A DNA stretch of 63,693 nt, filler included, from 7 parts of 7 records of this genome joined end to end with filler, not necessarily neighbours in it, one strand, 5' to 3'; counted from the whole stretch's first letter, positions 9,501 to 59,873 are shown. Program-made: numbers and translations. The notes: a model not told the origin generated them from the letters alone.

Positions 9501-9619
9501 AAATCAGGAAATAACTGTGAAGACATATCTCTCATAATAACAATTCCAGCAACTACCATTGAGACGATTGTCATAAAAGTCAATACTGATCTTTTAATTG
9601 CAAATTTTGATAAACTCAT
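6557..9619 (-). CDS. RND efflux permease (AcrB/AcrD/AcrF, HAE1 family)
   Basis: 1020 aa; GMLVDNSVVVVDNI, GIVVNNAIVLVD and RLRPILMTT motifs. Confidence 0.96.
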   Translation of the reverse strand: MSLSKFAIKRSVLTFMTIVSMVVAGIVIMRDMSSQLFPDFNIPVVMIRTTWSGATPDNVEKLVTTTIENAITGVEGIKNVSTTSEQGSSNVVIEFNYGVNVDDRLPDIRSKIDNVAGDLPDDATTPVIFKMDPSSMPIIVYNLYGSDLIDLYTIADDVFAPSLEKISGVSSVDITGGIETEVRVELNEQKINSYGLSLNTIESTISASNLNIPLGTLAEGAKKFTLSTTSEVESLDEVKNIIISSEDGTIIRLKDIADVKLSEKDRSSYARQNSEDAVRISVNKMNGANTVEIIKTVKETMTELMAAQPENIKIKLTTDDSTSIQQSVKTVSQNAIQGLILAGIVLLIFLKNLRASIIVAIAIPVSIIFTFAFFPLLDININMMSLMGLALGVGMLVDNSVVVVDNIFRHMTELKEDKITAASNGASEMTFALIASTATTVAVFVPIILKQGMTREMFHNMSFAIVFALVSSLLIAITFVPMAASKFLNPAKVSLKEGRILKFIKKFYLRFLKFTLKHRVKTVIITLVMFVSVVFVGKNNIKISFFPTMDEGKYRITGTMAKGLEIEKANEIAKRVEKIIAENSFTKDYSVSLTESEIRFDVQASKKADRKESITEIMTQVREKITYMPDVNFIVANSGGGPGGSSSGELQLSLKSSDTEVLKAYSEKVLEKMKTIDGLVDENSSYEGGNPKIKMDLNREKMAYYGIDVSSLVSYISTKVNGSDIFSIKTGEQEIDVTVRSKKVNRDTVKKIKNLQFKADKGVFKLKDLAKITLVEGSTEIEKENRKQQITIGANLEGMALNEGVAKVQSALEEIGIPKSISYSFSGNQKNIQDVIKNIVFALKVSVYAIFFILAAQFESYTMPLIIMGSLPLSIIGVLVGVMITGIDMDMMVMVGIVMLMGIVVNNAIVLVDYINLLRNKGRNMYDAIIESGSTRLRPILMTTMTTVLGMIPLALGMGEGSEFYKGLSIAVIFGLSVSTLLTLVFIPVLYSLEESIRRRVKRKLKYEATIYKEEDVENV

Positions 9620-11049
9620 TATTCCACCTCTTTTATGCTCTCATTATCTTGAAGCAGAAATTGTCCCTCAATTACAACTTTATCTCCTTCTTTTACAGAA
9701 TCAGATATCACTTGGATATAGTCATCATCTGAAATACCTGTTTCTACTCTGATTCTCTTAGATTTTTCATTTTCTACAGTAAATATATAACTATATAAGT
9801 TCTTGATTACAACAGATTCTTTCGGAACAACTAAACAGTTTTTTGTTTTTTCAAATAAAGTAACATCTGCAAACATTCCTTTTTTAAGGTAACCATCATT
9901 TTCTACATAAATTTTCACCTTAAATTTATTAGTACTATCCTCGGCAATTGGATTGATACTTACAATTTTACCTTTATAAGTTAGATCTACATCTTCTATA
10001 AATACAATTGTTTCTTTTTCTTCATCCAACTTTGAAATTTCTTCTGCACTTAATCCAACTATCACTTCTATTTTGCTCTCATCTATAACTGTTGCTAAAA
10101 CTTGTGTTTCTCCACTTGTTTTTTCAAATCTTTTAACAACAATACCAGCTACAACTCCATCTATTTTTGCTTTTACCTCTAAATCTTTTAGTTCTTCTTC
10201 CGCTTGTTTAAAACTTGCTTTTGCTGATAGATATGACGCTTCTGCTTGTTTGATTGAATATTTCCAGCTTTCACCTTCAACTTGCTCATTTGCATATAAA
10301 TATGATGCTTCTGCTGAATCATATGCCGCTTTATAAGATCTGATATCTTCTTCATCAGTTCCATCTATTGCTAATTCAAGTGTATTTTTAGCTGAATCAT
10401 AAGAAGCTTTAGCTTGCTTATATGTTGTTTCATAAGTAATAAATTCTGATTCAGAAATTAACTCTTTTTCATATAACTCCTTATATTTATCATAGTTAAA
10501 TTCTGCCTGTTTAAGAGCTTCTCTGGCTGAAGCAGTATTTGCTTCCTGGATTGCAATCTCTTTTTTATTACTTCCTCTTAGTGCTTTTTCATATGTTTCT
10601 TTTGCTTGTTTATAAGTAGATTCTGCACTTGATAAACTGTTTTTTACATTTAATTCCTCAAAGCTTTTTTTCTCATTATATGAAGCTTCTGCCGACATAA
10701 GTGACGCTTTTGCTGATAGATAATTTTGTTCTATATCATCATCACTTAGGCTCATAATCAGATCTCCGGCTTTTACTTTATCTCCATTATTAACATAGAT
10801 CTTTTCAACTTCACCTGCCGGCGCAGTTAATTCAACTAAATTTTGAGAATCAAGTTCAGCATTCCCCAAAATCTCACTACTAATTTTTTTATATTCAACA
10901 CTTGTTGTCTTTACAGCAGTAATTGAACTTTTGCCACCAGGTCTTCCTGGTCCTCCTTTACCACCTGATGGCGTACCTCCTTGTTTCTTACCGCATGCGA
11001 TTATTGTTAATAGGATTGCTCCTACAGTAAGTATCTTTATATTTTTCAT
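9619..11049 (-). CDS. RND periplasmic adaptor (MFP) lipoprotein with long helical hairpin
   Basis: Lipobox IIAC, GDKVKAGD lipoyl half-motif, coiled-coil repeats, GDKVVIEG end. Confidence 0.92.
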   Translation of the reverse strand: MKNIKILTVGAILLTIIACGKKQGGTPSGGKGGPGRPGGKSSITAVKTTSVEYKKISSEILGNAELDSQNLVELTAPAGEVEKIYVNNGDKVKAGDLIMSLSDDDIEQNYLSAKASLMSAEASYNEKKSFEELNVKNSLSSAESTYKQAKETYEKALRGSNKKEIAIQEANTASAREALKQAEFNYDKYKELYEKELISESEFITYETTYKQAKASYDSAKNTLELAIDGTDEEDIRSYKAAYDSAEASYLYANEQVEGESWKYSIKQAEASYLSAKASFKQAEEELKDLEVKAKIDGVVAGIVVKRFEKTSGETQVLATVIDESKIEVIVGLSAEEISKLDEEKETIVFIEDVDLTYKGKIVSINPIAEDSTNKFKVKIYVENDGYLKKGMFADVTLFEKTKNCLVVPKESVVIKNLYSYIFTVENEKSKRIRVETGISDDDYIQVISDSVKEGDKVVIEGQFLLQDNESIKEVE

Positions 11050-11117
11050 TTATTTCTCCCCTTTATATTATTTTTCCTGTACCATAGTAAAGTATAATTT
11101 TTTTAACTTTTTATACT

Positions 11118-12377
11118 CTATCTCAAATAATTTTTATAAACTTCGTAAGCATAAAATAAATCTAACTTCGTTTCAATTAAATTTAGCTCTGCATTTCTCA
11201 TATCATATTCTGCTTCTAGATAGTCGGTAGAACTTATTAATGAGTTCTCATAACTCTTTTCCTGTAACTCATAATTCTCTTTTGAACTTTCTAGAGCTTT
11301 TTCATTGGCTACTTCAAGTTTCTTTAATCTTATTAATTCTAAATATTGGGATTTCATGTTAAGTTCAATTTCTTCTTCTTTAATCTGCTCCGAATATTCA
11401 GCATTTCTAGTATTATTTTTTGCCTCTTTATAAGCATCCTTATTTTTTCCCCAACTAAATATACTACCTGATATATTTACCCCAACTGACCAAGCGACAT
11501 TTTCACTTTTAAATGATTCAGAGAGATCACCAGTAACGGAATTGATATTACCATAGTCAAATGCCAAATTCACACTTGGATAAAACTCCGCTTTTGCTGT
11601 AGTTTCACTTGCTTTAATAAGTTCTGTACTTAATTTTTGAATTTTTATTTCAATGCTATCGTCAAGCGCTTTTGCTATATCACCATTTAAATCTATACTC
11701 TCAATATCTATCTCAGTAAATTTAATCTCATCTAATTGAAAGTCTGTTCCCTCTGCTATTCCTAGAGAGTTCTCAAGGTTAATCTTAGTTGTTTCAATAT
11801 TGTTATTCTTTTTGATCATTTCTGTATCAAGTTCAATTAATGAATAGCTCAAGTTTAATACTTCTGTTTTTTTCGCCAAACCAAGCTTATATTTTTCTGA
11901 TATTTTCTGATATTGTTTTTCAATTATCTCCTTGGATTTTTCAAGTATTTTAAACTCTTTTTCATATTTATTAAGAGTTATATATGTGTTTATAACCTCC
12001 ATTGCTATTTCATTTTTCTTATCCTCAAGTTCTAAACCACCTTTTTCAAGATATTGCTTTGAGTTCTTTATGGCTATTTGAGTTTTAAATCCATCAAATA
12101 GAGTTTGACTAATTTCCAAATAATATTTGTTAACTAAATCGTCATTTGATTCAATCTTATTTGTTGAACCCACATAGCTTAATTCCGGTAGCGCAGATTT
12201 AAATGCCTGCTCTTTTTGTAACTTATAATTTTCTAGTGAGATTTCTGCTTGCTTAATCTCCTTATCTTCCTCTTTGGCAAGTTTTATAGTTTCCTCAAGG
12301 TTCAGAGTCAATGTTTCTGAATATCCTTTTATACTAAGTAGTGCCAAGAAGATTATTAATGTCTTTTTCTTCATCAC
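11118..12377 (-). CDS. TolC-family outer membrane protein
   Basis: Signal peptide, LNLEETIKLA, helical repeats, FYPSVNL; first large gene of the RND operon. Confidence 0.88.
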   Translation of the reverse strand: MMKKKTLIIFLALLSIKGYSETLTLNLEETIKLAKEEDKEIKQAEISLENYKLQKEQAFKSALPELSYVGSTNKIESNDDLVNKYYLEISQTLFDGFKTQIAIKNSKQYLEKGGLELEDKKNEIAMEVINTYITLNKYEKEFKILEKSKEIIEKQYQKISEKYKLGLAKKTEVLNLSYSLIELDTEMIKKNNNIETTKINLENSLGIAEGTDFQLDEIKFTEIDIESIDLNGDIAKALDDSIEIKIQKLSTELIKASETTAKAEFYPSVNLAFDYGNINSVTGDLSESFKSENVAWSVGVNISGSIFSWGKNKDAYKEAKNNTRNAEYSEQIKEEEIELNMKSQYLELIRLKKLEVANEKALESSKENYELQEKSYENSLISSTDYLEAEYDMRNAELNLIETKLDLFYAYEVYKNYLR

Positions 12378-13690: not shown

Positions 13691-13790
13691 NNNNNNNNNN
13701 NNNNNNNNNNNNNNNNNNNNNNNNNNNNNNNNNNTTAATTAATTAANNNNNNNNNNNNNNNNNNNNNNNNNNNNNNNNNNNNNNNNNNNN
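13691..13790. other. Artificial contig linker
   Basis: N44-TTAATTAATTAA-N44. Confidence 0.99.
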
Positions 13791-19224: not shown

Positions 19225-19324
19225 NNNNNNNNNNNNNNNNNNNNNNNNNNNNNNNNNNNNNNNNNNNNTTAATTAATTAANNNNNNNNNNNNNNNNNNNN
19301 NNNNNNNNNNNNNNNNNNNNNNNN
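19225..19324. other. Artificial contig linker
   Basis: N44-TTAATTAATTAA-N44. Confidence 0.99.
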
Positions 19325-40096: not shown

Positions 40097-40196
40097 NNNN
40101 NNNNNNNNNNNNNNNNNNNNNNNNNNNNNNNNNNNNNNNNTTAATTAATTAANNNNNNNNNNNNNNNNNNNNNNNNNNNNNNNNNNNNNNNNNNNN
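40097..40196. other. Artificial contig linker
   Basis: N44-TTAATTAATTAA-N44. Confidence 0.99.
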
Positions 40197-40362: not shown

Positions 40363-42729
40363 CTAAAACTTTAATCTCACGCCGCCATAAAAGCTTGTGC
40401 CAATCATATCGGCATAAGCAAATTGAACTTTGTCGTTACCCAATAGATTACGGGCATTTACGAAGACTTCGTTTTCTCCCCAAATTTTATATGAAATAGC
40501 GAGATTTAAAAGAAACTTTGGATCTATCTCAACTGTTGATTCTATATGATCAAATGTTTGCTTTCCGTAAAAATATCCGGTAACATTAGATGTTAACTTT
40601 TGTGTAATATTATAGTTAACCATCAGTCCACCATAGAATGAAGGAGTCGCTTTATGTGATAAATTTTCTGTTGAACTAAAATCAGTTGTATAACTTAAAT
40701 AAAGTGGTAAACTTCCCTGAGCTGCTGCTCTCATAATACTATCTGTTGCAGCTGCCTGATGCTCACCCAATACTTCAAATGTTGTTTTTGGATAGAAATT
40801 TTTTAGCTTGGTTGATTGAATTGTTCCAAAAACTTTAAAGTTTACATCTTTATTTACAACCATACTAATATTTGCACTAACACCTTGTTGAACGGAAACT
40901 AAATCGAAATTTCTGTAGCTTACATTACTTTCTATTGTATATACCGGAAGACCAGATGGTGCCATGACAGGAACTCCATTATTAGTCATCAATGTAAACG
41001 ACATATCAACTGGCATAAAATATGTGAAATCCTGTGTTTTGGTATGAAAATATTCAATATCTGCTTGAATATTTGCAACAGGCTTTATTCTATATCCAAG
41101 TTCAATCTGATCCATAACAGCCAAATCTAATTCTTGATTTCCTGTCCAGAACATATCAAAAATACCTGGAATATAATGCCACACATAGTCTGAGTAATTA
41201 TCTGCCATAAATGGACCTCTGTTTGCACGGCTAAATACTCCCCTTACCAAATTATTATCATTAATAGAATACGTTGAAATAAACTGGTATGTGTAATATG
41301 TATCATCAGGTGAGTTATATTTATCTCCACGAACTGCAGCTATTAACCTTAATTTATCCATTAGTGTATAATCTGCACGTAAGAAATAGGCAAACGTATT
41401 TAATTCTTTGCTACCATTCAAGTATCCTTCCTTAATTTCAACATCTACATAATTTGCATCGCTATAATTTGCTTTTTGATAGCTAATTCCCGGACGCAGC
41501 TTTAATGAACCTAACTTAAGTTCATATTCCAAATTAGAATTTAATACTTCAATATCGTAATGAAATCCTTTGTTTGTTCTCTCCACATCCTGATCGCCTT
41601 CCAAATAATTTACCTGGAAATTTAATCCATGTGCAGTTGCTTTAAAATCAACATAGGATGTTTTAGAATACCTGGTTAAAAATGGGATATCGTGATTTCC
41701 TAAAACATTGGTCATATTATCAGATTCCTGTGTACCCAATGTAAGATCTAATGCAATATCATCGTTCACGTCATAAGAAATAAAACCGTTTATGCCGTAT
41801 TGATCTGCAGATCTATCCGGATTTGGAACTTTATTTGGAAGATTATCTTCTACTAGCATCCCACCTAATGTTGGATCAGTTTCTCTTAAAGTATCAAGGT
41901 AACTTCTCGGGTAATATTCTTGATCATCAATGTAGTATAACGTTTCGTGGAACCTTCCCAACGACTTATAATTTCCCGATAAACGGACACTTAACTTATC
42001 GCCTAAACCAAACCCTGCTGAAGCATTGGTAATTAATGAACTATTACTTCCACCTTGCGCTGATGCAGAAAAAGTAGGTTTTTGCGTTTTTGTATCTTTT
42101 GTTACAATATTTATTACCCCGGTTACAGCATTCGGCCCATATAATGCACTGGATGGACCACGGATAACTTCAATCCTGTCAATATCATTTATACCGATTG
42201 GCAATGTTTCCCAAAACGTTCCACCAAATGCATAATTGTAAACCGGGCGTCCGTCAATCATAACAAGTGCCATAGAATTTTCTGAGTATAAAAGAATATT
42301 TTTTGGCGGCACATTATCATTCCCGCGGATATGAACATCGTAATTACCAGGTGTTTTCTCTCTAACAACCAAACCCGGAACCAACCTTAACGCCTCAGGA
42401 ATAGATGTTACTCCGGATTGTACTATCTCTTCGCCGGTAACAACAGTAGAAGATAATGGAGATTCAAACGATGTTTCTTCTGATTTCGATGCCGATACGA
42501 TGTCTTTGTTAAGTATCATTTCGTATAATTCGTCTAACGAAACACCTACAATTTCAGCTAATTTTAATAACTGCTCAAGGGGCAAATCTATTAATTGATC
42601 GTAAGGAATATTTAATATTTCTTCGCGTGTCATTTCTTCAACATTAAGTGTAGTCTCCTGTGCATTTGTACTAACTACAATTAGTTGAACCATTATGATA
42701 AATAATATCGTCTTTATAAATGATTTCAT
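40363..42729 (-). CDS. TonB-dependent receptor
   Basis: Plug motifs SIPEALRLVPG, LVMIDGRPVY, IDRIEVIRGPSSALYGPNAVTGVINIVTK; C-terminal Phe. Confidence 0.95.
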   Translation of the reverse strand: MKSFIKTILFIIMVQLIVVSTNAQETTLNVEEMTREEILNIPYDQLIDLPLEQLLKLAEIVGVSLDELYEMILNKDIVSASKSEETSFESPLSSTVVTGEEIVQSGVTSIPEALRLVPGLVVREKTPGNYDVHIRGNDNVPPKNILLYSENSMALVMIDGRPVYNYAFGGTFWETLPIGINDIDRIEVIRGPSSALYGPNAVTGVINIVTKDTKTQKPTFSASAQGGSNSSLITNASAGFGLGDKLSVRLSGNYKSLGRFHETLYYIDDQEYYPRSYLDTLRETDPTLGGMLVEDNLPNKVPNPDRSADQYGINGFISYDVNDDIALDLTLGTQESDNMTNVLGNHDIPFLTRYSKTSYVDFKATAHGLNFQVNYLEGDQDVERTNKGFHYDIEVLNSNLEYELKLGSLKLRPGISYQKANYSDANYVDVEIKEGYLNGSKELNTFAYFLRADYTLMDKLRLIAAVRGDKYNSPDDTYYTYQFISTYSINDNNLVRGVFSRANRGPFMADNYSDYVWHYIPGIFDMFWTGNQELDLAVMDQIELGYRIKPVANIQADIEYFHTKTQDFTYFMPVDMSFTLMTNNGVPVMAPSGLPVYTIESNVSYRNFDLVSVQQGVSANISMVVNKDVNFKVFGTIQSTKLKNFYPKTTFEVLGEHQAAATDSIMRAAAQGSLPLYLSYTTDFSSTENLSHKATPSFYGGLMVNYNITQKLTSNVTGYFYGKQTFDHIESTVEIDPKFLLNLAISYKIWGENEVFVNARNLLGNDKVQFAYADMIGTSFYGGVRLKF

Positions 42730-42754
42730 TTTAATTATCTTTTTCGATTGTTAG

Positions 42755-43264
42755 TTAATTAACTCTAATTCCCAGTGCAACCAATGAGTTATTCAATTTA
42801 AGTCCTGAAGAAATTACAGCATCCGGATTAATTTCAAATTTTTGTTTTCCATTCTGCATAACATAGTTTATACCAGCACCTTCCTTTGCAAGTCCATTTT
42901 TATCAGTCACAATCAATGTTGGCTTTGTAGATAAGCTCGATTTTAATGTTCCTAACTGAGAACTTTTTGAGCTTGTTAAATAAACGATGTGAGATCTGGG
43001 AATCTCACCTGAATCATTTACTTTATTAACAACAATAGCCTGGGTTCCAACTTTCTTTTTCGATGCAAGTTTTTCTAATTCTGCAACTAAACCCGAATTT
43101 CCAACTACAGTAATTACAAAATCGCCATTCTGATATTCAGCTGGCCATTCTAAATACTTTGTAAAATTGTACATAAAAAGTGCTTTGAACATGTCTTCCT
43201 GGGCCGAGACAACAAAAGACCCAAACAAACCGATGAGCAAAAACAGGATTGCTTTCCTTTTCAT
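42755..43264 (-). CDS. YfiR family (DUF4154) periplasmic protein
   Basis: KALFMYNFTKYLEWP, PTLIVTD, GAGINY, KFEIN..A...GLKLNNSL. Confidence 0.88.
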   Translation of the reverse strand: MKRKAILFLLIGLFGSFVVSAQEDMFKALFMYNFTKYLEWPAEYQNGDFVITVVGNSGLVAELEKLASKKKVGTQAIVVNKVNDSGEIPRSHIVYLTSSKSSQLGTLKSSLSTKPTLIVTDKNGLAKEGAGINYVMQNGKQKFEINPDAVISSGLKLNNSLVALGIRVN

Positions 43265-47646: not shown

Positions 47647-47746
47647 NNNNNNNNNNNNNNNNNNNNNNNNNNNNNNNNNNNNNNNNNNNNTTAATTAATT
47701 AANNNNNNNNNNNNNNNNNNNNNNNNNNNNNNNNNNNNNNNNNNNN
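47647..47746. other. Artificial contig linker
   Basis: N44-TTAATTAATTAA-N44. Confidence 0.99.
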
Positions 47747-47762
47747 AAAAATTGTCCATTAA

Positions 47763-48919
47763 TTATTTCTCCTTTATTAATCCTTCTAAAATACTTAAAA
47801 TGTTATTTTTTATAGTTATTTTTTTATCAATATTCTCCAGAATGGTTTCATAGGAGTTATCAAAATATACATAATCAATTATGTGCAACTCATCTTTATT
47901 TTCATATTTTTCATTCATATATGATAAGTCTCTTTCAGTTATGCCCTTATTTAAAAGACTAATTACCTCATTGCAATATGTTGCACTTTCATTTCGAATG
48001 TATTCATTAATAAATTTTAAATAATAATCAACATTAATTTGTGAGTTTTTGTAACTCTCCAGCGTAGCTTTTATTATTATTACATTTGCAATAAATAAAG
48101 TGTTTATATCATTAGTTTTTCCATAAATCATTTGATCAATTTGGTTAATAGCATCAACATATTTCTTTTGCAGAATCAAAATTTCTATTTTGATTAACAA
48201 TAATAAAGACATATCCTTTTGATTAGCATTTAGAATCTTTTCATCTATAAGCTCGCGCACCTTATTTAACTCTTCAATATACAATAAAACTAGAATTTCA
48301 TCATTAACTAATTCTGGTATTTTTTTATGTTGTTTTGAATCAATAATAATGCGCCAGAATAATCTTTTTTCTTAAAAAGTAGTTTTACTCTATTATTGAC
48401 TATGCTTTTATTACCGTGAAATTTTTCTTCAAGCATCTTGTTATATTTCTCAGCAGCTTCAACATCTATTTGCAACATAAGACTAAATTTAATTTGATGT
48501 ACAGCTTCATTAGTTGGATCTATTATTGTAAGTTCGTCTAACAATTTATTGGCATGCCTAAAGCTATTAACTGCTATTAACAATATACTCAATAACAACC
48601 TAGATTCAACATCATGGGAATAATTGTTAGCTATTTGAAATGTTTTCTCTAAGGCAACTTCGAAATTCCCTTTTAATAAGTTAGCTATAGATATACCTCG
48701 CAGGTTCTCGAGGTTGTTTCCACCATTTATTAATGATAAATTGAAGTTGTAAACTGCCTTATCATAATCTCCATCAATAGTATTAAGCTTTGCCAAATAA
48801 TAATATGGTAATGCATTGGATATATTTCTCATCAAGTATTTATTGCATAACCGTTTTGCTTGTTCATACTTTTTTTCACTAAATAATATGTCAAGTTTAT
48901 CATCCCTTTGTTTTTTCAT
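47763..48919 (-). CDS. TPR-repeat protein (~385 aa); two ORFs joined by a frameshift at ~48323
   Basis: YYYLAKLNTIDGDYDKAVYNF TPR; alternative frame IPELVNDEILVLLYIEE links to ORF 47763..48284. Confidence 0.7.
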
Positions 48920-48958
48920 TTATTTTCTCCCTAATCTATACATTGATTATTATTCTTC

Positions 48959-49929
48959 TTAATAACCTATCACTTGTCCTCTTAGTTCTTGTGCACCTTC
49001 TACAATGTAATAATATATCTTTTCGCCATTCTCTTCTCCGAACATATTAATTAAATAATCTCTTCCACTAGTTCCTGTTACTAATCCAATCACATCAAGA
49101 ATTTCTAACGTAGCGTATGTAGCAAACCAAGCAATCATCAAAACAGCTAAGCCAATAATAGCTGCTTTCGCAACAACCAATGCAGTTGATCCAAATAATA
49201 CAGCATAAAAATAAATCATCAAATCACCAATAAGTTTTGCGCCCCAGGCTGATAGTAACTCATACGAAAGTACCGCGATATAAGCTTCAAGTATTTCTAA
49301 GATTGCACTTTCAATATCCTGCCAATTGTCATCTAGCCAGTTTAATGCTCCTTCAATCCATTCTTCCACTGTAGATATCACTGGCTCGGCTACGTCTTTA
49401 ATAAATTCAACTGCATCATCAATCGACTCACAGAAAAACTCACCTGCATCATTTATAGCATTCATAGCAGTATCTTTAACATGATCAAATTTTTCAGAAA
49501 TAGATTCAGCTATATCTTCAACTTTTTCTGTTATTTCATTATAAGTTTCTCCAACAACTACTGCGGCATCTACAGTTCCCCCCAAATATCTGCTGATACT
49601 TCTTTCATTCCATCAACACTTCCATGATAAAACTCACCAACTCCATCAACTATTTGACCCCATATGCTACGTGATATTACAAAATCATCTGAACGATTTC
49701 TAAACGACGATAACTCTTTTTTATAGCTATCAAAGTCATTTTCTATTCTCTTGCAGTTTGAATATGCAGAATCTAATTGATCTCCAATCCCATATTTTCT
49801 TTTTAAATAACCTGGACTGGATAAGTCAATAGTTCTTAGCTCTTTTTTAATTTCATCGGCTAAATTCTCCGCATCGTTCACTTCCCTTTTCAATTTATCT
49901 AAGTGCGACAAATCAACCCTAACTCTCAT
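48959..49929 (-). CDS. Candidate T7SS substrate: WXG100/LXG-like helical N-terminus, acidic helical middle, hydrophobic C-terminal helices; frameshift at ~49580
   Basis: MRVRVDLSHLDKLKREV start; G-run shift joins IWG to GTVDAAVVV; hydrophobic segment LMIYFYAVLFGSTALVVAKAAIIGLAVLMIAWFATY. Confidence 0.6.
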
Positions 49930-49942
49930 ATAACTTCCTCAC

Positions 49943-51067
49943 TTATAATAGTTTAAATATATTATTTTCATCACCAAGATAGAGTTTATCTCCACTCTTT
50001 AGAGTGTTCTCCGTATTCGCAGTAAGCGGGGTTTCATCTTGATTAAAAGTACCTGTATTTGAATTATCCGTAACTATATACTCTTTAGTGTTTTTATCGT
50101 AACTAATAGAACAATGTAGCTTGCTTACTTTATCCTTGTTTTCCTCAATAATAACTCTTGCTTTAGCTGGGTCAGTACCAATTGTAATAATATCGTTTTC
50201 GTTTTTAAGAATAAATTTCAAACCTTTATATTGACCTTCGATGCACTTAATACTACCTTTTTTGTTTTTGTCTTTGATAAAGAACATAATAACGATTAAA
50301 AAGGCTAATAGCAGAATTACACCTAATAAAATCAACTTAGTTTTCATATCCATCGACCATTTAAAAAGTATCGCAGTATCATCCATCTTTTCACCAGTTG
50401 GAGCAAGCAATGTTTGTCCATTTATCCAAGAATATGATTTAATCTTATAATCTTTAGTTACATATTTTACTTTTCCTTGCAAAACAATAACTTTATCAAT
50501 ATCCTCTTCCTTTTCATAAAATATATCTCCAATAGTCAACTCTGGTACAATCTCACTATCGAAAAGTGATGTAAAAACAGGACTATTGCTAAAATTAAAG
50601 TGAATATATGTATACCCTTTTAAATCATCGATTTTTTCTGTTTTAAGCTCGCCCGATTGACCATCAACAAAGTCCAATTCATTTTTATCAGATTTTGAGA
50701 CCATTTCTCTAATAGAATCTATAAACCTTTCAAAATCATAGTTGCTTTTTCCAACAACCTCAATATAATTTGGTTTAGATGTAACAGTAGAAAATACAAT
50801 ACTATTTCCATCTGTGCTAATATCGTAGTCATCCACGTTTTTTCCAAACCCACTAAATGCAATAAACTCTTCTTTATCAATATTATTAACTTCAAACCAA
50901 TTACCACCAGAAGCCGTTATTGTATATTCATCTAAGCTAAGCTCTTCTTTTACTCTATTTCCATTCAAGAAAGTTGTCTTCAAATATGTCTGATCTTCAT
51001 ATGCATATGCAACAACAGAAGATAACGACAAAACTAAAGCTACCATAAATAATAATATTTTTTTCAT
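49943..51067 (-). CDS. Signal peptide + extracellular domain + TM + cytoplasmic FHA domain protein
   Basis: MKKILLF...AYA signal; TM near the C-terminal third; ITIGTDP..VSKLHC...DNSNTGTF FHA (GT replaces the usual GR). Confidence 0.8.
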   Translation of the reverse strand: MKKILLFMVALVLSLSSVVAYAYEDQTYLKTTFLNGNRVKEELSLDEYTITASGGNWFEVNNIDKEEFIAFSGFGKNVDDYDISTDGNSIVFSTVTSKPNYIEVVGKSNYDFERFIDSIREMVSKSDKNELDFVDGQSGELKTEKIDDLKGYTYIHFNFSNSPVFTSLFDSEIVPELTIGDIFYEKEEDIDKVIVLQGKVKYVTKDYKIKSYSWINGQTLLAPTGEKMDDTAILFKWSMDMKTKLILLGVILLLAFLIVIMFFIKDKNKKGSIKCIEGQYKGLKFILKNENDIITIGTDPAKARVIIEENKDKVSKLHCSISYDKNTKEYIVTDNSNTGTFNQDETPLTANTENTLKSGDKLYLGDENNIFKLL

Positions 51068-51068
51068 A

Positions 51069-51750
51069 CTAATCCCCTTGAAACTTGTTATTCTTCCAGC
51101 TAAAATTCTCATCACAAATACTTATAAACATAAGCTTTGTATGCCCTACTTCTATGATATCCTTATTGCTTATATTAACCTGTTGTAATACAGGGGTATC
51201 ATTCAAGTAAACAATTTGATCACCATCACCTGGTGCAATCAAATATGTATTGGATTTGATGTCATAGACTAAAATACAATGATTCTCTCTAGTAACACTT
51301 TTATCATTTAGCACAACATGCATTCTTTCACTTCTTCCAATTCTATTCATTCCAGCTATAAGTCTAAAGTCAAGACCAATATCTTCCCCCGACACACAAA
51401 GCAACCATCCTACTACTGGCTCAACACCCTCGTTTCTACTAATCCCTACCGTTTTGTCATCGCACTTATTTAAATTTTCCGAATCATTGTTTTGAGTTGT
51501 AATCGTTGAATTAGTAACTTGTGAAACAACATTTTCATCTATGAATTCATTTTCTATACTACTTGTCACATTTTTTACTTCTAACAACATATACAGTATT
51601 ATCATTTCTGCTCTCTGCTCTTTGCTGTGGTGTTCGTCTGTTTTCTACGTGTATAGAACTCTTATTAGCTTCATTATTTTTACAATACGGACATTCCTTT
51701 AATTCTTTTTTATAAAAATGCCCATTACGACACTTTTTCATTTTATTCAT
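51069..51750 (-). CDS. Zn-ribbon + FHA domain protein; frameshift at ~51573
   Basis: KKCRNGHFY...CPYC N-terminus; EPVVGWLLCVSG..G.DFRL..G.NRIGRS...SVTRENHC FHA. Confidence 0.8.
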
Positions 51751-51760
51751 AAATATTCCC

Positions 51761-52285
51761 TTACCATACGAATCCATTTGTACAAACCAGCAAAACTAGC
51801 AAATGTGTATTGCCAATCGTAATGATATCTTGGGTGACAATTGTCTCACTTTCTTCAATCACTTCACCATTTAACAGTGTTTCTGCTTGCATATGTACTG
51901 GATCTACAAGATAATCTCCTTTATTTGAACAAATAATACAATGCTTGTCTCTTGAAACAGATTTATCACTTGATATACAAATATCCATTTCTGCACTTCT
52001 ACCTACTGTTGTATCACCTTCAAAAAAAGGATAAAAATTACCTTTTTCAACGCCGTCAATTACAACACAAAAACCAACTGGATTTTTCTTTATATTTTCA
52101 GTATTTTTATTCAGATATTCTGTCTTATCATCTAATACAATTGCATGCCCCTTATAATGATTATTGTTTTGATTAATTGGCTCAACTCTTTTATTTTTAA
52201 AATCACCGTTTGATTTTTTTGAAGAACTACTTTCTCTTCGCAAAGCCCTTGTCCGAATACTATCTTCATGACTTCTATCATTCAT
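51761..52285 (-). CDS. FHA domain protein
   Basis: PVGFCVVIDGVEKG, TVGRS, SVSRDKHC, LLNG, DIITIGNT. Confidence 0.88.
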   Translation of the reverse strand: MNDRSHEDSIRTRALRRESSSSKKSNGDFKNKRVEPINQNNNHYKGHAIVLDDKTEYLNKNTENIKKNPVGFCVVIDGVEKGNFYPFFEGDTTVGRSAEMDICISSDKSVSRDKHCIICSNKGDYLVDPVHMQAETLLNGEVIEESETIVTQDIITIGNTHLLVLLVCTNGFVW

Positions 52286-52494
52286 TAAAACTCTTTTAGG
52301 CTCTTTTTTCTGAGCTTTCTCTTTTTTCTTTTTTTGTCTCGAGTTTTATCATCATTTTTAGAGCTACCTCTGCCTAAGTTCATTGTCTTATTAGAACGAT
52401 TAACCTTTTCGTATGGTGTCCTACACGTAGTACAACAAGAACTTTCATTTAAATTAAAAGCAGCTCCACATTTTTTACATCTGACTAAACGCAT
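52285..52494 (-). CDS. Small Zn-ribbon protein (possibly the frameshifted N-terminus of the next FHA gene)
   Basis: RCKKCG...CCTTC; GAGG RBS; abuts the next gene. Confidence 0.6.
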   Translation of the reverse strand: MRLVRCKKCGAAFNLNESSCCTTCRTPYEKVNRSNKTMNLGRGSSKNDDKTRDKKRKKRKLRKKSLKEF

Positions 52495-52534
52495 AATTAA
52501 ACAACCTCAACTACCATATTTTTCAATAACAATA

Positions 52535-52837
52535 TTATATAGATGAAAATACACGTGAGTACTTCAAATCAAACTGCTCAACATCATCCGAAAAATCATA
52601 CATATTTTTTGAAAGTTCAATCATAGCATCCGTTAAACTTTTATAAATGTCTTTTAATTCATCATACTCTTTATAAAACTGTTCGCTTTCTTCTCCATGC
52701 CAATCATAATCTACCAGCCCCTCAACAACCCGACTGGAAATATCCATGATTCTATCGCAAATTTCTTTGCTCTTTTTCATCTCTTTGCTTGCGTCAAATA
52801 CCATGTCAGTATCACAAAGCATATAATCTTTTGCCAT
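52535..52837 (-). CDS. WXG100-family T7SS protein
   Basis: ~100 aa helical with central W-H-G (YDWHGEESEQF). Confidence 0.85.
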   Translation of the reverse strand: MAKDYMLCDTDMVFDASKEMKKSKEICDRIMDISSRVVEGLVDYDWHGEESEQFYKEYDELKDIYKSLTDAMIELSKNMYDFSDDVEQFDLKYSRVFSSI

Positions 52838-52856
52838 ACCATATCTCCCTAACTTG

Positions 52857-52888
52857 TGTATTGAGAGCAAACAAATACTCTCAATACA
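52857..52888 (-). promoter_or_regulatory. Intercistronic hairpin after the EsxA-like gene
   Basis: TGTATTGAGAG / CTCTCAATACA inverted repeat. Confidence 0.55.
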
Positions 52889-52905
52889 ATAGACTTAAGT
52901 CTCAC

Positions 52906-53214
52906 CTATTCAACAATAGACTGCGCAACTCCAGCTCTTTGTTGATCAATCTCTTCAGCACTATCTGCAGTTTGTTTTACGTAATCGCCGAATGTTCTTA
53001 CTGCGTCAGAAAACTTTTGCTGATACAGCTTAAACTCGTCATATTCACCTAGAAATGTATCATATTCTTGTCCATCCCAATTTCCTTCTAAACCGTTGAT
53101 GATTTCATTCATTCTAGCTGCTTCACCATCAAGGTCTTCTGCAAGTGTCATTAATGCTTGTGACTGTGTTCTCATAGCATCTGGGCTATATAAAATTTGA
53201 TCTGCTGCTGGCAT
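52906..53214 (-). CDS. WXG100-family protein (EsxA/YukE-like)
   Basis: QILYSPDAMRTQS...LEGNWDGQEYDTF...EEIDQQ; strong AAAGGAGG RBS. Confidence 0.92.
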   Translation of the reverse strand: MPAADQILYSPDAMRTQSQALMTLAEDLDGEAARMNEIINGLEGNWDGQEYDTFLGEYDEFKLYQQKFSDAVRTFGDYVKQTADSAEEIDQQRAGVAQSIVE

Positions 53215-53273
53215 AATTATGCCTCCTTTCATTTTTTAAGCGTTATTATTTAAAACCTCAATTACAGAGGTTA

Positions 53274-53534
53274 TTAACCACTAGATTCTTCTCGTAAAAA
53301 ATCATATCCTGCTCGAATCATATCATCAGCAATATCATCAAGCTGTTTATATAATTTTCTAAGCTTTTTTTCCTCACGACCCATCGCATCAGAAAACTCC
53401 TCCTGAGCTAGTCCCATCCACTCATCATCACTCATATTACGGATGCCTCTAACTTCACTTTTCATTCTTTTAACTCGATCATTTAACTCTTTTATTCTTT
53501 TTGCCATTGCAAATGCAACTGATGCCTTAGACAT
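53274..53534 (-). CDS. WXG100-family protein
   Basis: 86 aa helical with DEWMGLAQEEF. Confidence 0.82.
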   Translation of the reverse strand: MSKASVAFAMAKRIKELNDRVKRMKSEVRGIRNMSDDEWMGLAQEEFSDAMGREEKKLRKLYKQLDDIADDMIRAGYDFLREESSG

Positions 53535-53545
53535 TTTACCCTCCG

Positions 53546-53776
53546 TTACTCTACAAGGTGTAATATATCACCTGTTAATATATTTTCTTCAAATAAGGAT
53601 GATTCATTATTTAGTTGAGAATTCTTATTCTCGCTAAATAAAACTACATCAACATTCACCAGTTCAAATCTCTCAACCAAAACCATTGTAAGGTCAAGAG
53701 TATTAATATCTGGATCAACCTCAATATCAATTTGCTTTTCATCACACTTTACTGTAAACATAATTCTCTTTTTCAT
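53546..53776 (-). CDS. EsaB/YukD-like ubiquitin-fold protein
   Basis: IMFTVK...IDIEV...SLFEENILTGDILHL; directly after EssC. Confidence 0.8.
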   Translation of the reverse strand: MKKRIMFTVKCDEKQIDIEVDPDINTLDLTMVLVERFELVNVDVVLFSENKNSQLNNESSLFEENILTGDILHLVE

Positions 53777-56700
53777 CTATTTGTCCTCTTGAATTAATCT
53801 TAAATTACATATTCTATTTCCATTTAATAGAGTACAATAATATCCTTGCTTTAGTTTTTCCTTATCTTTATATCCTCTTAAAAACCATTTGTGCTCAGAG
53901 TTAGCACCATCAACTATCAATGATATTTGACTTTGAATTGCTCTTTGCAACGGAACAAAACCTTTATCATTCCACACAGTTATACTTTGTGCATCAGATG
54001 CAACTAAAGTAATCAATTTACTTGTAAAAACATCATCCTTAAACATCATATTCATAATCTCATATGCATCCATCGATATCATATTAATCAATTTTCCAAA
54101 ATCATCGCATATAAGAAGTTTTTCAGTGTTGTTATCCCTAATATCTTTATATATGTTCTTTATGTAGTCATCAAATTCTTTTTCATGCGTATTGTCGTAT
54201 TCATATATACTAAACTTACTATTATTTATTAATTTATCTGTCCAATCTTTTTCTGTCCAAACATCAACTTCATAATTCCTAAATACATTTGATTTAGAAT
54301 GTAAACGGTTATATAGATTAATCAACATCTGTTTACCATAATTGCTGTCGATATAAGAAACCATTATTTGAGATTGACTATTGATGTCAAAGTATTCAGC
54401 TTTACCACTGGATACATTTTGTCCAATTGGTATTAATGTATCAGATTGCTCAACTGCAATCTCGTCCAATAACTCTTCACTTAATTTTTCTACAACTTTG
54501 TTACTTTTTTGAATTTCATATCCCTTTTCATTTGCACTCATATTCTCAAACAGTTTTATTAGTTTCATGTTTACAGAACCCTCGGTTTCTAATTCAACTG
54601 CCATTGCTGCTTGAAATTCTAAGCCATTGTATATTCCACGACCTGGGCTTTGTGACGTCATGGAAAATCCCCTTGGCAGCTCAAATGATTGAATCGCATC
54701 TGGTCTCAAACAACAGTTATTTACATCCGTGTATCTTCTAAACTCATGCGGAATTGTTCTTCTATCATGTCCGGTAATTACAAAATACAAACCATGAGAT
54801 ATTCCTATACGTAACAACTCTTCAAACCTTGAAAGAGCTTTGCTCTTCAATTCAAGCATCGCATCAGCATTATCAATAAATACAAAAATATTTGGCATAA
54901 TATTGTTTTTATTAATAATGTTATATTCATCAATATTGCTAATACTGTTTTCATTAAATATCTCAGCTCTTTGTTCAACAATACTCTTTAACAAAACAAT
55001 TCCTTCTTCAACATGTTGAAAATTTGAACCTACAAAAACATTACCCATATGTGGTAGCTTTTCTAGTGAAGTATTAGGCGAACTACTAAAGTCAAAACAA
55101 AACATATTAAGTGATTTCGGGCTGTTTTGATAAGCTAAGGACATCATAATTGTATATAACAATGTTGTCTTACCAGAATATGCTGGTCCATATATCATAA
55201 AGTGCGACTTTTCGTTGCCAAAATCAATTATAGTGTTCTTATACTCCCTATTGGAGATGTCATCTGATAAACCGACAACAGCTTTCAAGTCTATTTCATC
55301 ATCAGAAATCCACTCTCCACCCTTATAATTAGTGTTGCCGATAATCTCATCTAGTTTTATATAATTGCTTAATACAGGCAACCAAAGATCCTTTAACCTT
55401 TCTATTTTATTATCCTTTGATGTTTTTATTACGGCATCTACTACCGCATTAAGTTGTGATTGCTTTTTATATTCCAAAGAACTCGTATTGGCTAAATAAA
55501 GAGGATGTCTCTGTCCTTCTAAATCTACTTCGAAAATGGAAGGCATCGTTTCTTCTAATGTATTATCAGATGTTTCCCGATACTCCGCACCCGTATATGC
55601 ACTTTGAAATACTTGCAATTCGTTATGTCCTACACGCAGCAAACCTCTACCTGGAGTACTGTCAGAAATATATGCTGCATCAGGACTATCAATAATTCCT
55701 CTACTATTGTCTTTTGATATCCTAAAACATATCTTATAATTTACATTTGCTTGAATCTGGGCATTTATAACCCCTTGTGGATTTTGAGTAGTCAACAATA
55801 AATATATACCAACGGATCTACCTCTTCTCGCAATATCCTCTAATATATCCATAGCTTTATTTTCGCGTATTTTAAGCTCCGCTAATTCATCAACAATAAC
55901 CAATAAATAAGGGATAATAGGTCCATTCTTAACTGTAGAAAAGTATGACTCCAAATCTTCAATACGTACACCCAATTTATTACTATAATCTCTAAATAAA
56001 TTTTCTCTATGTTCTATCTCAAACTTAATCGCTGCTAGTGCTCTTTTGGTCATTACTCCTTTATCAAGATCTGTTACTATTCCGTGTACATGAGGGATAT
56101 CCTTGCATGCCTCAGCAGTACTTCCTCCCTTGTAATCTAATACAACCATTCCTAGTCTGTCAGGATGACACTGTATTGCCATACCTAAAATAACTGATAA
56201 AAGAAATTCGGATTTACCGGATCCAGTAGTACCTCCAACAATCCCATGTGGTCCTATACCCTTTCTTGTTATGTTTAAAGTTAATAGTTTCTTTTCATCT
56301 ATTTTTGCAACGGGAGCTTCAGGAATAGGCTTAATATAATTTTCCAACCATCTATCAATAATTTTTAATTCTTCAATAGATTTAGCATTGAACAAATCCA
56401 ATAAAGTAACATAGTTTGGAACTTTTTTATCCATAGCCAAACTCTCAACATTTACTGGAGCTAATGATCTGGATATGTTTTCAATATTGTCTTTAGTATA
56501 TAAATCCAAATGGAATCTTCTGTTTTTCCCACTATCGTCCTCGATATTTCCGCGATCAAATCCCATAGTTGTTATCGTTTTGAAATTCACTGGTATGTTC
56601 CGAATTAATTCACTTGCACAAATACAATATATTCCTAAATGAGAGTAATCATTTAGAAGAAATTTAGCTAAATCATGACTGTTTTCTTTTTCAATTAGAG

Positions 56701-56993
56701 CTAAATCAGTAATAAAGAACATCAACTTTGGCGTAAATTCTTTTTCTTTCGAATCAGGATCAAGATATTGTTTTTCTCTTTTTCTATTTCTTCATAATAG
56801 TAATCAAAACATTTTTGTTTGTAGCAATATGGACATGTCTTTTCAAGACTTTTATTACTAAAACACTTTCCATCACAATCCTTTTGTTTGTTATCAGCAG
56901 TAAAAATCATTCTTCCGGAATTACCTACTGACCATATATGAGGAAGATAACCTAAACAATCGTAGTCTGTTAATTGATCTTGTGGCGACACAA
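53777..56993 (-). CDS. essC: T7SS FtsK/SpoIIIE ATPase EssC-like (5'-truncated; frameshift at ~56780)
   Basis: D1 GPHGIVGGTTGSGKSE / LLVIVDELAEL / GRSVGIYLLLTTQ; D2 HFMIYGPAYSGKTT / IFVFIDN; degenerate D3; upstream fragment has YLPH of D0. Confidence 0.9.
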
Positions 56994-57093
56994 NNNNNNN
57001 NNNNNNNNNNNNNNNNNNNNNNNNNNNNNNNNNNNNNTTAATTAATTAANNNNNNNNNNNNNNNNNNNNNNNNNNNNNNNNNNNNNNNNNNNN
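56994..57093. other. Artificial contig linker
   Basis: N44-TTAATTAATTAA-N44. Confidence 0.99.
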
Positions 57094-57124: not shown

Positions 57125-58565
57125 ATCGGTCTGTATGTTTTAATATCGGGTGTCTTACTGCTTTGACCTCATCAAGTCTTCTAACTATTGTATGATGTGG
57201 TGCAGTTTTTACAAGTTCTGGATTGCTCATTGATTCATTTGCGACTTTACGCATCACATCAATAAATGCATCTAAAGTTTCTTTTGATTCGACTTCTGTA
57301 GGCTCAATCATCATCGATTGATGAAATATAAGTGGGAAGTAGATGGTTGGTGCATGTACACCATAATCAAGTAGACGTTTTGCTAAATCAAGTGTTTTCA
57401 CACCTGATGACTGATCAATTAAACCATCAAAGACAAATTCATGCATCGCCAATTGATCGATTGGTAGTTGATAAAGATCTTTTAAAGATGATTGAATATA
57501 GTTAGCATTTAAAACAGCATAACTTCCAACTTTTGATAGGTTTTCTTTGCCTAATGAAAGGATATAAATATATGCTCTTAAGTAAACACTAGCATTTCCA
57601 TAAAATGCGCCAATACGTCCAATAGTATGTGTAGGATTGATAAAATCATATGTGCCATCTGTTTGTTTCACAAATGGGGTTGGGAGATAATCAATAAGTT
57701 TTTTGCAAACACCAACTGGACCAGATCCTGGACCTCCACCACCATGTGGTGTAGAAAATGTTTTATGAAGATTTAAATGAGTAATATCAAAGCCCATATC
57801 TCCAGGTTTTGCATGGCCTAGTAAGGCATTTAAATTCGCACCATCATAATAAAGCAATCCGCCCGCTTCATGGACTAATTGAGATACTTCTAAGATATCT
57901 TTTTCGAAAACACCAGCAGTATTAGGATTTGTGAGCATCAATCCAGCAACTTCATCATTTAACGCTTCTTTAAGTGCTTCAATGTTAATCGTACCATCTA
58001 GATTAGATTTTATTTCTAGTACATCAAATCCACAAACTGATGCACTTGCTGGATTTGTTCCATGTGCACTATCTGGGACTATAATCATATGACGTTTCGT
58101 ATCATGATTGACTTCATGATATTTTTTAATAATCATGAGTCCAGCGAGTTCACCGTGTGCACCAGCAAAAGAGTTGAGAGAATAAGCGTGCATGCCTGTA
58201 ATATCTGATAACATTTTTTGTAGATCATCATATATTTTAAGCATGCCTTGCATACTTGAAGCTGGTTGTAATGGGTGAATGTTTGCAAATCCGGGTAATG
58301 ATGACAATTTATCATTTATTTTTGGATTGTATTTCATTGTGCATGAGCCTAGAGGATAAAATCCATTTTCAATACCGAAGTTTTTTTGACTAACATTTGT
58401 AAAATGTCTTACAACATCTAATTCTGATACTTCTGGAAGATTTGCATCAACTTCACGTTTTAAATGATGAGGGATATCAACATCAGGACATTTAAAAGAT
58501 TCGATCGTATAACCAATGCGTTCATTTTTTGATAAATCAAATATAAGTTGATTATAAGCTTTCAT
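57123..58565 (-). CDS. gcvPB: Glycine dehydrogenase subunit 2
   Basis: YPLGSCTMKYNP, SAHGTNPAS, YYDGAN, HLNLHKTFSTPHGGGGPG, MIEPTE. Confidence 0.97.
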   Translation of the reverse strand: MKAYNQLIFDLSKNERIGYTIESFKCPDVDIPHHLKREVDANLPEVSELDVVRHFTNVSQKNFGIENGFYPLGSCTMKYNPKINDKLSSLPGFANIHPLQPASSMQGMLKIYDDLQKMLSDITGMHAYSLNSFAGAHGELAGLMIIKKYHEVNHDTKRHMIIVPDSAHGTNPASASVCGFDVLEIKSNLDGTINIEALKEALNDEVAGLMLTNPNTAGVFEKDILEVSQLVHEAGGLLYYDGANLNALLGHAKPGDMGFDITHLNLHKTFSTPHGGGGPGSGPVGVCKKLIDYLPTPFVKQTDGTYDFINPTHTIGRIGAFYGNASVYLRAYIYILSLGKENLSKVGSYAVLNANYIQSSLKDLYQLPIDQLAMHEFVFDGLIDQSSGVKTLDLAKRLLDYGVHAPTIYFPLIFHQSMMIEPTEVESKETLDAFIDVMRKVANESMSNPELVKTAPHHTIVRRLDEVKAVRHPILKHTDR

Positions 58566-59873
58566 AGAAGGCCACCACCTTTTCAATGAGATAGTTTATA
58601 TCTTCGATAGTGCGTTTATCAGATACTGCGAATAATAAGTGATTGTCACCTAGTGGAAGTGGTCCTAAAATATCATCGTTTAATAAGTAGGTTTCTAAGT
58701 TATGACTATCAAACTTAGCTTTTAATACAAACTCATTAAAAAATGGTTGTTCATAAACGACTTCAAATAGATTAGTTTTTAATAATTTATGATATAAATC
58801 ATGAGATTTTTTAAGCGTTTCATAACTATTATTTTTAAAACCTGTTTTACCAAGTAGTGATAAATAAACAGTTGCTGCTAGTGCATATAATGATTGATTG
58901 GAACATATATTGGAATTGGCTTTTGCACGTCTAATGTGTTGCTCTCTTGCTTGCAGTGTTAGCACAAATGCGGGTTTACCATCAACATCTGTGGTCATGC
59001 CACAAATACGACCTGGCATTTTCCTTACATATTTTTTCTTTGTTGCAAGGTATCCAAGATATGCACCCCCAAAACTCATGGGTAATCCTAGAGATTGTAG
59101 TTCACCACATGCGATATCCGCATCATAGGAATTCGCATTTTTATATAGTGCTAAAGATTGTCCTTCTTGGTTTAAAATCAATAAACCTTTATGTTCATGA
59201 ATGATATCACTGATGCCATCGTAATCTTCAATAATGCCATAATAATTTGGTGTAGATACGATTAACCCCATAGTATCTTTTGCATGTTCTTTAATGTATG
59301 AAACATCTGTGACGCCATCTTTTTCTGGAACAAGCTCAACTAAGATATTTCTGTATTTCGCATATGTTTGAATAACTTCTATGGTTCTTGGGTTAAGTGT
59401 TGAACTCACAAGAACTGTTTGTTTTTTTGTTTGTGCATAAGCCATAAACATAGCCTCAGCAGTCGCAGTTGCCCCATCATACATCGATGCATTAGAAACA
59501 TCCATCCCTGTGAGCTCACAAATCATGGATTGATATTCAAAGATGTAGTGTAATGTCCCTTGTGAAACTTCTGGTTGATAAGGTGTATATGACGTTAAAA
59601 ATTCTTGTCTTAAGATGGTAGAAGTAACCGCACTTGGCGTGTAGTTATCATAACTACCTGCACCTCTAAAAACAAGTAATGATTGATTACTTGCAGCAAG
59701 GCTTGTCATATGCTTTTCAAGTGCATATTCTGAAATTGTTTTGGAATTTGATAAGGTGTTTTAATACGCAGTGATGCAGGTATTTGTTGAAATAGAGCAT
59801 CAATAGAAGAAGCACCAATGACTTTTAGCATATCTTCTATATCTTTTTTTGTATGTGGTAGATATTTATGCAT
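58552..59873 (-). CDS. gcvPA: Glycine dehydrogenase subunit 1; frameshift at ~59740
   Basis: Upstream frame MHKYLPHTKKDIEDML; FRGAGSY, YTPYQPEVSQG, NASMYDG, LQAREQHIRRAKANSNICSNQ. Confidence 0.96.

Follow-up and report, generated by a model that had tools for sequence, protein, structure and literature searches.

Type VII secretion systems (T7SS) beyond the a and b types were catalogued only in 2024, from RefSeq genomes only, when Garrett, Higginson and Palmer defined T7SSc-j (Microlife 5:uqae013, PMC11217815). Its main text reports that the T7SSc-j clusters often encode kinases, PPM phosphatases and FHA proteins. T7SSe, f and j are described there with a separate FHA component, TsxJ, which consists of DUF6382 and an FHA domain, and with the PPM phosphatase TsxF; the kinase TsxD is present in e and j. 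The FHA domain of TsxC keeps the phosphothreonine motif in T7SSe/f/j, which "raises the possibility" of phosphorylation control, and the type VI secretion system (T6SS) is cited as the precedent. The FHA domains of T7SSb EssC are without the phosphothreonine site and bind EssB, and TscE, a vWA protein of the cytoplasm, has no FHA domain (PMC11217815). The subject of the present analysis is a T7SS locus encoding three FHA proteins next to essC, which makes up one contig of a 63.7 kb stretch of DNA (hereafter the window). The contig is read as the 3' part of a divergent T7SS operon in which the FHA adaptors would be parts of the machine and would be switched by phosphorylation; this joint reading is given a probability of about 0.55.

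The window consists of seven contigs divided by six N44-TTAATTAATTAA-N44 joiners (5618-5717, 13691-13790, 19225-19324, 40097-40196, 47647-47746 and 56994-57093), which carry stops in all six frames. The T7SS locus is exactly one whole draft contig, 47747-56993, of 9247 bp. As the contigs are bounded by artificial joiners, adjacency across a joiner is meaningless; neither the glycine-cleavage genes that appear "upstream" of essC nor the gene beyond the joiner at 47647-47746 is therefore a true neighbour of the locus. The features are listed below, starting from the essC end; for genes split in the window into two open reading frames (ORFs), the length is that of the protein read through the break. 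SD denotes a Shine-Dalgarno site.

56994..57093, no strand: artificial contig joiner N44-TTAATTAATTAA-N44; the second joiner bounding the contig lies at 47647-47746.
53777..56993, minus strand: essC (tsxC), 3' two thirds, with the end of D0 and the P-loop domains D1, D2 and D3; the 5' part is cut by the contig end.
53546..53776, minus strand: esaB/yukD-like gene (tsxB) of a small ubiquitin-fold protein, 76 aa, directly after the essC stop.
53274..53534, minus strand: WXG100 protein, 86 aa, W-M-G; PF06013 34.2 bits against a cut-off of 27.3; SD-like GGAGGG upstream.
52906..53214, minus strand: WXG100 protein, EsxA-like, 102 aa; PF06013 44.8 bits; ATG preceded by AAAGGAGG (SD).
52535..52837, minus strand: third WxG-type protein, small and helical, 100 aa, W-H-G; weakly related to WXG100.
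51761..52494, minus strand: Zn-ribbon-FHA protein A, 244 aa read through; FHA 40.3 bits; +T after 52328 joins the ORFs.
51069..51777, minus strand: Zn-ribbon-FHA protein B, 236 aa read through; FHA 33.5 bits; +TT after 51570 joins the ORFs.
49943..51067, minus strand: bitopic membrane FHA protein, 374 aa; FHA 39.2 bits (ORF 49943-51115).
48959..49929, minus strand: acidic helical protein, 323 aa, with a C-terminal hydrophobic hairpin; +C after 49577 joins ORFs 49570-49929 and 48959-49585.
47763..48919, minus strand: TPR protein, 385 aa read through from ORFs 48308-48919 and 47763-48284; TPR_19 30.1 bits.

All genes of the contig are on the minus strand, in the order essC, EsaB/YukD-like, three WxG, two Zn-ribbon-FHA, bitopic FHA, acidic and TPR genes. 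The intergenic gaps are 0-68 nt or the genes slightly overlap, and SD-like sites were detected ahead of nine gene starts. The co-orientation and tight packing described in the original prediction, which had been made from the DNA sequence alone, were confirmed. The contig is also cut inside essC, as predicted: the joiner starts at 56994, and the outermost ORF, of 89 aa, corresponds in alignment to residues 506-577 of the 1578-aa relative P0014, which means that about 505 N-terminal codons are missing. The missing residues were sought elsewhere in the window and were not found. An exact look-up of 10 window proteins in the protein collection resulted in no matches, and no RNA data sets were listed as containing the contig stretch.

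The EssC sequence carries the evidence for a separate lineage. In the Pfam search, the 982-aa EssC ORF matched FtsK_SpoIIIE (PF01580) with E 6.5e-45 in two stretches, and Walker A motifs GSGKS and YSGKT are present. The top NCBIfam families were TIGR03928, TIGR03924 and TIGR03925, with TIGR03928 as the best, at 526.1 bits for the window fragment. Full-length P0014 reached 700.6 bits on TIGR03928, which is under the curated equivalog cut-off of 778.4. A search of 5.8 billion clustered proteins revealed six clusters of close relatives sharing 43-56% identity, the next match being at 31%, and the identity to named EssC proteins was about 30%. All six relatives are metagenomic, consist of 1566-1578 aa and contain both FHA (PF00498) and FtsK_SpoIIIE (PF01580); the longest contigs encoding them measure 17.5 and 19.8 kb. 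It had been proposed that canonical EssC differs from this one by carrying FHA domains itself; since the N-terminal FHA is found on EssC in six of six close full-length relatives, that distinction was dropped. The window's own N-terminus is missing; in the relatives, this FHA domain has Ser-x-x-His and Thr-Asn-Gly in six of six sequences and the aligned Arg in five.

An insert of four cysteines, C-x3-C...C-x2-C (CDGKC...CPYC), lies in D0 upstream of D1 (window positions about 56840-56900, P0014 residues 551-569) and is likely to form a zinc knuckle, judged by the pattern. The pattern was matched in 6 of 189 EssC/EccC rows, all of them in the 7-row clade of the window, and in none of the 182 rows outside it. 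The seventh clade member, P0016, has four Cys at shorter spacing, as seen by eye.

In the FastTree phylogeny of all 189 rows, for which three EccC rows from Actinomycetota served as the root, the 7-row clade was sister to the 174 other Bacillota-type rows with a stem of 1.47 changes per site. In the IQ-TREE analysis (LG+G4, 45 chosen rows), the clade was sister to the canonical T7SSb group and not inside it (SH-aLRT 94, not starred), its stem measuring 1.45. The EssC proteins of the loci with DUF6382-FHA and PP2C genes formed a separate starred clade without the window clade. Four rows whose longest ORF was other than EssC had been dropped from the tree. The two trees disagree on the exact position of the clade, and the long stem invites artefacts such as long-branch effects, but in both of them the EssC lineage is separate from every other group. 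The phylogenetic check suggested with the original prediction thus placed the clade on a long stem of its own, outside canonical T7SSb and outside the DUF6382/PP2C loci.

The distribution of related loci was determined by scanning contigs. With the EssC alignment, three Actinomycetota loci and one Erysipelotrichaceae locus (L004) were found among genome contigs and 80 loci among metagenome contigs; the metagenomic ones were all at about 30% identity, so that the close clade was not represented among them, the search patterns being too general. A scan of viral contigs and a scan of genome contigs with EssC itself gave nothing. A search for longer EssC proteins (1720-4910 aa) returned giant Chloroflexi FtsK-like proteins, which were of no use.

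The second distinctive part of the locus is its set of FHA proteins. In the window, protein A is divided into ORFs 52285-52494, with CxxC...CCxxC, and 51761-52285, with the FHA domain; protein B is divided into 51559-51777, with C-x3-H...CxxC, and 51069-51605, with FHA. The original gene list, with a Zn-ribbon protein and an FHA protein as separate entries, needs to be corrected: both pairs are single Zn-ribbon-FHA genes of 244 and 236 aa split by homopolymer undercalls. The two proteins are paralogous, with 30% identity over 125 aa. The residues GR, SRxxH and NG are all present in the FHA domain of protein A. A search of PDB sequences with protein A returned generic FHA matches only.

The third protein consists of a signal peptide, an ectodomain of about 210 aa, one transmembrane (TM) helix and a cytoplasmic C-terminal FHA domain, with hydrophobic segments at 1-24 and 238-269. 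No known family was matched by the ectodomain. In a HMMER search against 1.84 billion representatives, 1318 matches were obtained, nearly all of them to the FHA domain. Among the best 150 matches, five reached upstream of query residue 200, and P0135 (384 aa, 29% identity) alone covered the full length. With the vWA-TM-FHA proteins described below, the FHA domains alone were aligned by hhalign, and the match to TIGR03354 (TagH) was weak, 28.3 bits against 120.25. No usable match was found in ESM Atlas and no match by word-index search, and an AlphaFold2 model built from a 7-row alignment had a mean pLDDT of 50, which was too poor to use.

To relate this set to other systems, 84 loci fetched with EssC were surveyed using local hidden Markov models built from Pfam-confirmed seeds, together with a kinase motif; many of the loci are truncated, and the counts are therefore lower bounds. 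FHA was located on the long ATPase ORF in 52 of the 84 loci, and stand-alone FHA genes were present in 21, all on the essC strand. PP2C genes occurred in 18 loci and the Hanks catalytic-loop motif in 12. A DUF6382-(Zn-ribbon)-FHA design was found in nine loci (L007, L014, L016, L042, L044, L046, L074, L076 and L083), together with PP2C and sometimes with kinase genes. In tblastn, the window Zn-ribbon-FHA proteins matched the last FHA gene of L007, L016, L083 and L074, with at most 38% identity over 125 aa and E values down to 6e-28; the identity of protein B to those of L007 and L016 was 34-38%. In these four loci of the 84, that last FHA gene follows two or three PP2C genes downstream of essC. 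Zn-ribbon-FHA proteins without DUF6382 were detected in L016 and L080; the one of L080 is encoded after essC and shares the N-terminal position of the ribbon with the window proteins. A further design, signal peptide-vWA-TM-FHA, was found at L006:5975-7522, L064:16852-18519 and L074:16734-18419. By domain layout, the window thus appears to recombine known themes: the N-terminal ribbon-FHA architecture twice, and a bitopic FHA protein with a non-vWA ectodomain. Separately from the window locus, the signal-peptide/vWA/TM/FHA protein of L006, L064 and L074 is a receptor-like component that does not appear in the main text of PMC11217815.

The original prediction of a non-canonical T7SS with FHA proteins as operon members therefore agrees with three results: the score of P0014 under the TIGR03928 cut-off, the separate stem and the FHA genes beside essC in 21 of 84 loci. 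The proposed gating by Ser/Thr phosphorylation can be called plausible and has to be kept conditional, as no kinase or PP2C gene was seen in the visible 9.2 kb. Where that gating and its T6SS analogy had been put forward as a possible novelty, the priority is elsewhere, both having already been published for T7SSe/f/j (PMC11217815, main text).

In the mechanism we prefer, the membrane ATPase EssC/TsxC would power export and would work with the YukD/EsaB-like protein, while the WXG100 proteins would be exported. The three extra FHA proteins would be machine parts and not bystanders. The Zn-ribbon-FHA pair and the bitopic FHA protein most likely constitute a cytoplasmic and membrane adaptor layer, a place filled elsewhere by EssB/EsaA/EssA (T7SSb) or by TsxJ, the kinase and the PPM phosphatase (T7SSe/f/j). 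The Zn-ribbon-FHA proteins and the FHA domain of EssC probably read phosphothreonine formed by a Hanks kinase, which would be encoded upstream or elsewhere, and phosphorylation would switch assembly or activity. The 323-aa hairpin protein is most likely an exported membrane-active substrate and the TPR protein a chaperone or an immunity factor; a structural membrane role would be equally plausible.

The locus is an FHA-rich, non-b T7SS of a kind already described in outline, whereas its EssC lineage and its particular FHA toolkit appear to be undescribed. Similarly to T7SSe/f/j, there is an EssC/TsxC with an N-terminal FHA (seen here in the relatives), a putative YukD-like TsxB downstream and a separate FHA component, and control by Thr phosphorylation is proposed. 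More than one WXG100 gene is present, as in T7SSe. A TPR domain occurs as in T7SSj, but there it is located on the kinase TsjD. In contrast to T7SSe/f/j, the window locus has three FHA proteins instead of one, with N-terminal Zn ribbons and no DUF6382, its bitopic FHA protein has an ectodomain of no known family, and neither a PPM phosphatase nor a kinase is found in the visible part. Its EssC stands outside the clade of the DUF6382/PP2C loci and contains the Cys4 insert. The sampled DUF6382/PP2C loci probably correspond to T7SSe/f/j, judging by gene content, and the tree contained no named T7SSc-j sequences. The words "zinc" and "metagenom" are absent from the main text of PMC11217815, and a search of listings of the available literature found nothing on Zn-ribbon-FHA T7SS components or on subtypes beyond j.

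Compared with canonical T7SSb (Staphylococcus aureus Ess, Bacillus subtilis Yuk), the shared features are the EssC architecture of FHA, D0 and three P-loop domains, a putative EsaB/YukD protein, WXG100 proteins, TIGR03928 as the best NCBIfam match and small WXG-like genes right after essC. In S. aureus, esxC, esxB and esxD directly follow essC. The differences are the score under the TIGR03928 cut-off, the EssC identity of about 30%, the position of esaB after essC and the extra FHA proteins. The T6SS threonine-phosphorylation pathway (Fha1/TagH, PpkA, PppA) also combines a secretion ATPase machine with an adjacent FHA adaptor, but there is no homology past the FHA domain and no kinase or phosphatase was seen here, so the likeness is an analogy only, and one already drawn in the main text of PMC11217815.

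Several observations weigh against the phosphorylation-switched machine. The first 505 or so essC codons and all DNA upstream are missing. No EssB, EsaA or EssA was found by Pfam in the visible 9.2 kb, from which the DNA upstream of essC is absent. The Pfam and NCBIfam scans detected no kinase or PP2C phosphatase in the same 9.2 kb, both ends of the locus being cut, in agreement with the original prediction that no kinase is visible; none was seen either on the other six contigs of the window (ORFs of at least 90 aa scanned). The proposed search for a linked kinase or PP2C found PP2C genes and the Hanks motif in the distant loci and neither on the contig itself. With an E-value limit of 0.01, none of the three FHA proteins matched DUF6382 (PF19909), the mark of TsxJ; the same search detected this domain on FHA proteins of nine other loci. 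The synteny of FHA genes with essC was seen only in distant loci with about 30% EssC identity. The FHA domain of protein B has GR, TRxxH and ND, i.e., Thr for Ser and Asp for Gly, and the membrane FHA protein has GT / SKxH / TG against the GR / SRxH / NG kept in its relatives; the latter residues contact phosphothreonine. In addition, more than one organism may be represented in the bin. Composition and position alone were the basis for assigning roles to the TPR protein and the 323-aa protein, with no family matched. ORF 4003-5148 of another contig resembled HprK-related kinase A below the threshold (TIGR04352, 53.6 bits where 200 are required), with no visible link to T7SS.

Part of these observations would also fit FHA proteins that are phosphorylation-independent structural subunits, scaffolding EssC in the membrane with no kinase involved. 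We regard this alternative as doubtful, although the contig without kinase and phosphatase genes and the altered residues of the membrane protein and of protein B agree with it, and T7SSb offers the precedent of EssC FHA domains that bind EssB without a phosphothreonine site (PMC11217815, main text). In contrast, the phosphate-contacting residues are kept in protein A and in the EssC FHA domain of six of six relatives, they are kept in the relatives of the membrane FHA protein, and the nearest Zn-ribbon-FHA homologues adjoin PP2C pairs.

It is quite improbable that the locus is an ordinary T7SSb, with esxA-esaA-essA-esaB-essB on the missing upstream DNA and with the FHA genes as neighbours having another job, e.g., envelope-stress signalling. 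The DNA upstream of essC is indeed unseen, TIGR03928 is the best-scoring family and the IQ-TREE sister position to canonical T7SSb has SH-aLRT 94. However, the esaB-like gene is located downstream of essC and not upstream, P0014 stays under the TIGR03928 cut-off, the clade stem is 1.45-1.47 with a FastTree position outside all 174 other Bacillota-type rows, and no spacer separates the FHA genes from the T7 genes, which they adjoin or overlap, in addition to their recurrence beside essC in the survey.

The weakest alternative is a decaying remnant, in which frameshifts would have inactivated essC and four other genes. It would account for the five breaks in reading frame that the window sequence shows within 9.2 kb but is scarcely credible, as each break falls in a T5-T7 or C6 run, the contigs of the public run X1 (depth about 5, one contig each) supply the extra bases that close it, and gcvPA on another contig is split alike, which points to an assembly fault.

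The genes in question are essC, both Zn-ribbon-FHA genes, the acidic protein gene and the TPR gene, each split into two ORFs. For essC the frameshift lies near 56778, between ORFs 56722-56991 (89 aa) and 53777-56725 (982 aa). X1 was the one public run with the stretch, containing 92% of the sampled contig words; it may be the source sample of the window itself. The sole differences between its contigs and the window were six insertions, after 48319, 49577, 51570, 52328, 54247 and 56778, and all of these sites are within the homopolymer runs mentioned. When the six insertions were applied by script, the five breaks were closed and one in-frame codon was added. The frame of essC became continuous for 1072 aa (5' open) with +T after 56778 and +TTT after 54247, and the TPR ORFs were joined by +T after 48319 (one public contig). 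The other corrected lengths are those listed above. As all six changes restore or keep long frames, and as gcvPA (window 58552-59873) is broken likewise into ORFs of 55 and 385 aa, the five gene breaks are read as homopolymer undercalls of the assembly and not as decay. With six such indels in 9.2 kb, other apparent pseudogenes in the record are also suspect.

It is possible, and we propose it tentatively, that the locus represents an eleventh, unnamed T7SS subtype known only from metagenomes, in which EssC split off before or beside T7SSb and acquired the Cys4 zinc knuckle, the accessory layer is composed of FHA proteins entirely, and the bitopic ectodomain would sense an outside signal and transmit it to the ATPase. 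The locus adds a lineage absent from the named genomes, with a different toolkit of two Zn-ribbon-FHA proteins, a bitopic FHA protein and the EssC Cys4 insert, and the survey suggests that FHA accessory proteins stand beside essC in about a quarter of the 84 metagenomic loci. If the FHA layer is a signal-gated assembly switch, T7SS would be the second secretion machine so controlled, after T6SS. At present the locus has the value of a lead, because the locus is truncated and the assembly is of low depth and error-prone.

Some indications of the host were obtained from composition and from the other contigs. The T7SS contig is low-GC and its genes use SD sites, as expected for Bacillota. Genes of outer-membrane type are present on other window contigs (6557-12377, 40363-43264 and 5721-6206). 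They encode an RND permease together with its adaptor and TolC-family partner, a TonB-dependent receptor (plug and barrel), a YfiR/HmsC-like protein and part of a chemoreceptor. The PolA encoded on the contig of the TonB receptor resembled Bacteroidota clusters in ESM Atlas, which is a lead only. SD sites were found for 0 of 4 genes there, compared with 4 of 5 on one other contig and 13 of 17 on another. By tetranucleotide correlation, the T7SS contig was not separated from unrelated low-GC loci. These findings may reflect a mixed bin or a diderm host. A diderm host could be considered given the TolC, TonB receptor and chemoreceptor genes; outside Actinomycetota, an EssC-type system in such a host would be unusual.

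The small proteins following essC were compared with their families. The EsaB-like protein matched YukD (PF08817) with E 1.6e-4 and 22.8 bits, under the 27-bit gathering score; it has no C-terminal Gly-Gly, and the size and position of its gene match those of the YukD genes of L007 and L074. The EsxA-like protein would consist of 108 aa if started at the upstream ATG, 53232, and reached 44.4 bits on TIGR03930, against a cut-off of 44.85. Three WXG100 genes had been predicted; two were above the PF06013 cut-off, and the third, the W-H-G protein (ORF 52535-52870), had no Pfam match and gave TIGR03930 at a sub-threshold 23.2 bits only.

The acidic protein contains 59 acidic (D+E) and 28 basic (K+R) residues and a hydrophobic stretch at 233-284, and no family was found for it in Pfam, NCBIfam or PDB sequences. 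What had been taken for a WXG-like hydrophobic protein is its C-terminal part, without a WXG100 match. The TPR assignment, supported by TPR_19, was retained, but the true protein is the 385-aa product of both ORFs; it has no hydrophobic or TM segment, and PDB sequence searches with the TPR piece gave generic TPR matches only.

Among the loci collected by the EssC-alignment scan, L004:3033-9440, from an Erysipelotrichaceae metagenome-assembled genome whose flanks are without b-type or FHA-type accessories, contained a minimal T7SS-like set: a WXG100 protein, a 645-aa Big_2 protein, a 1234-aa EssC without FHA and a 90-aa ORF.

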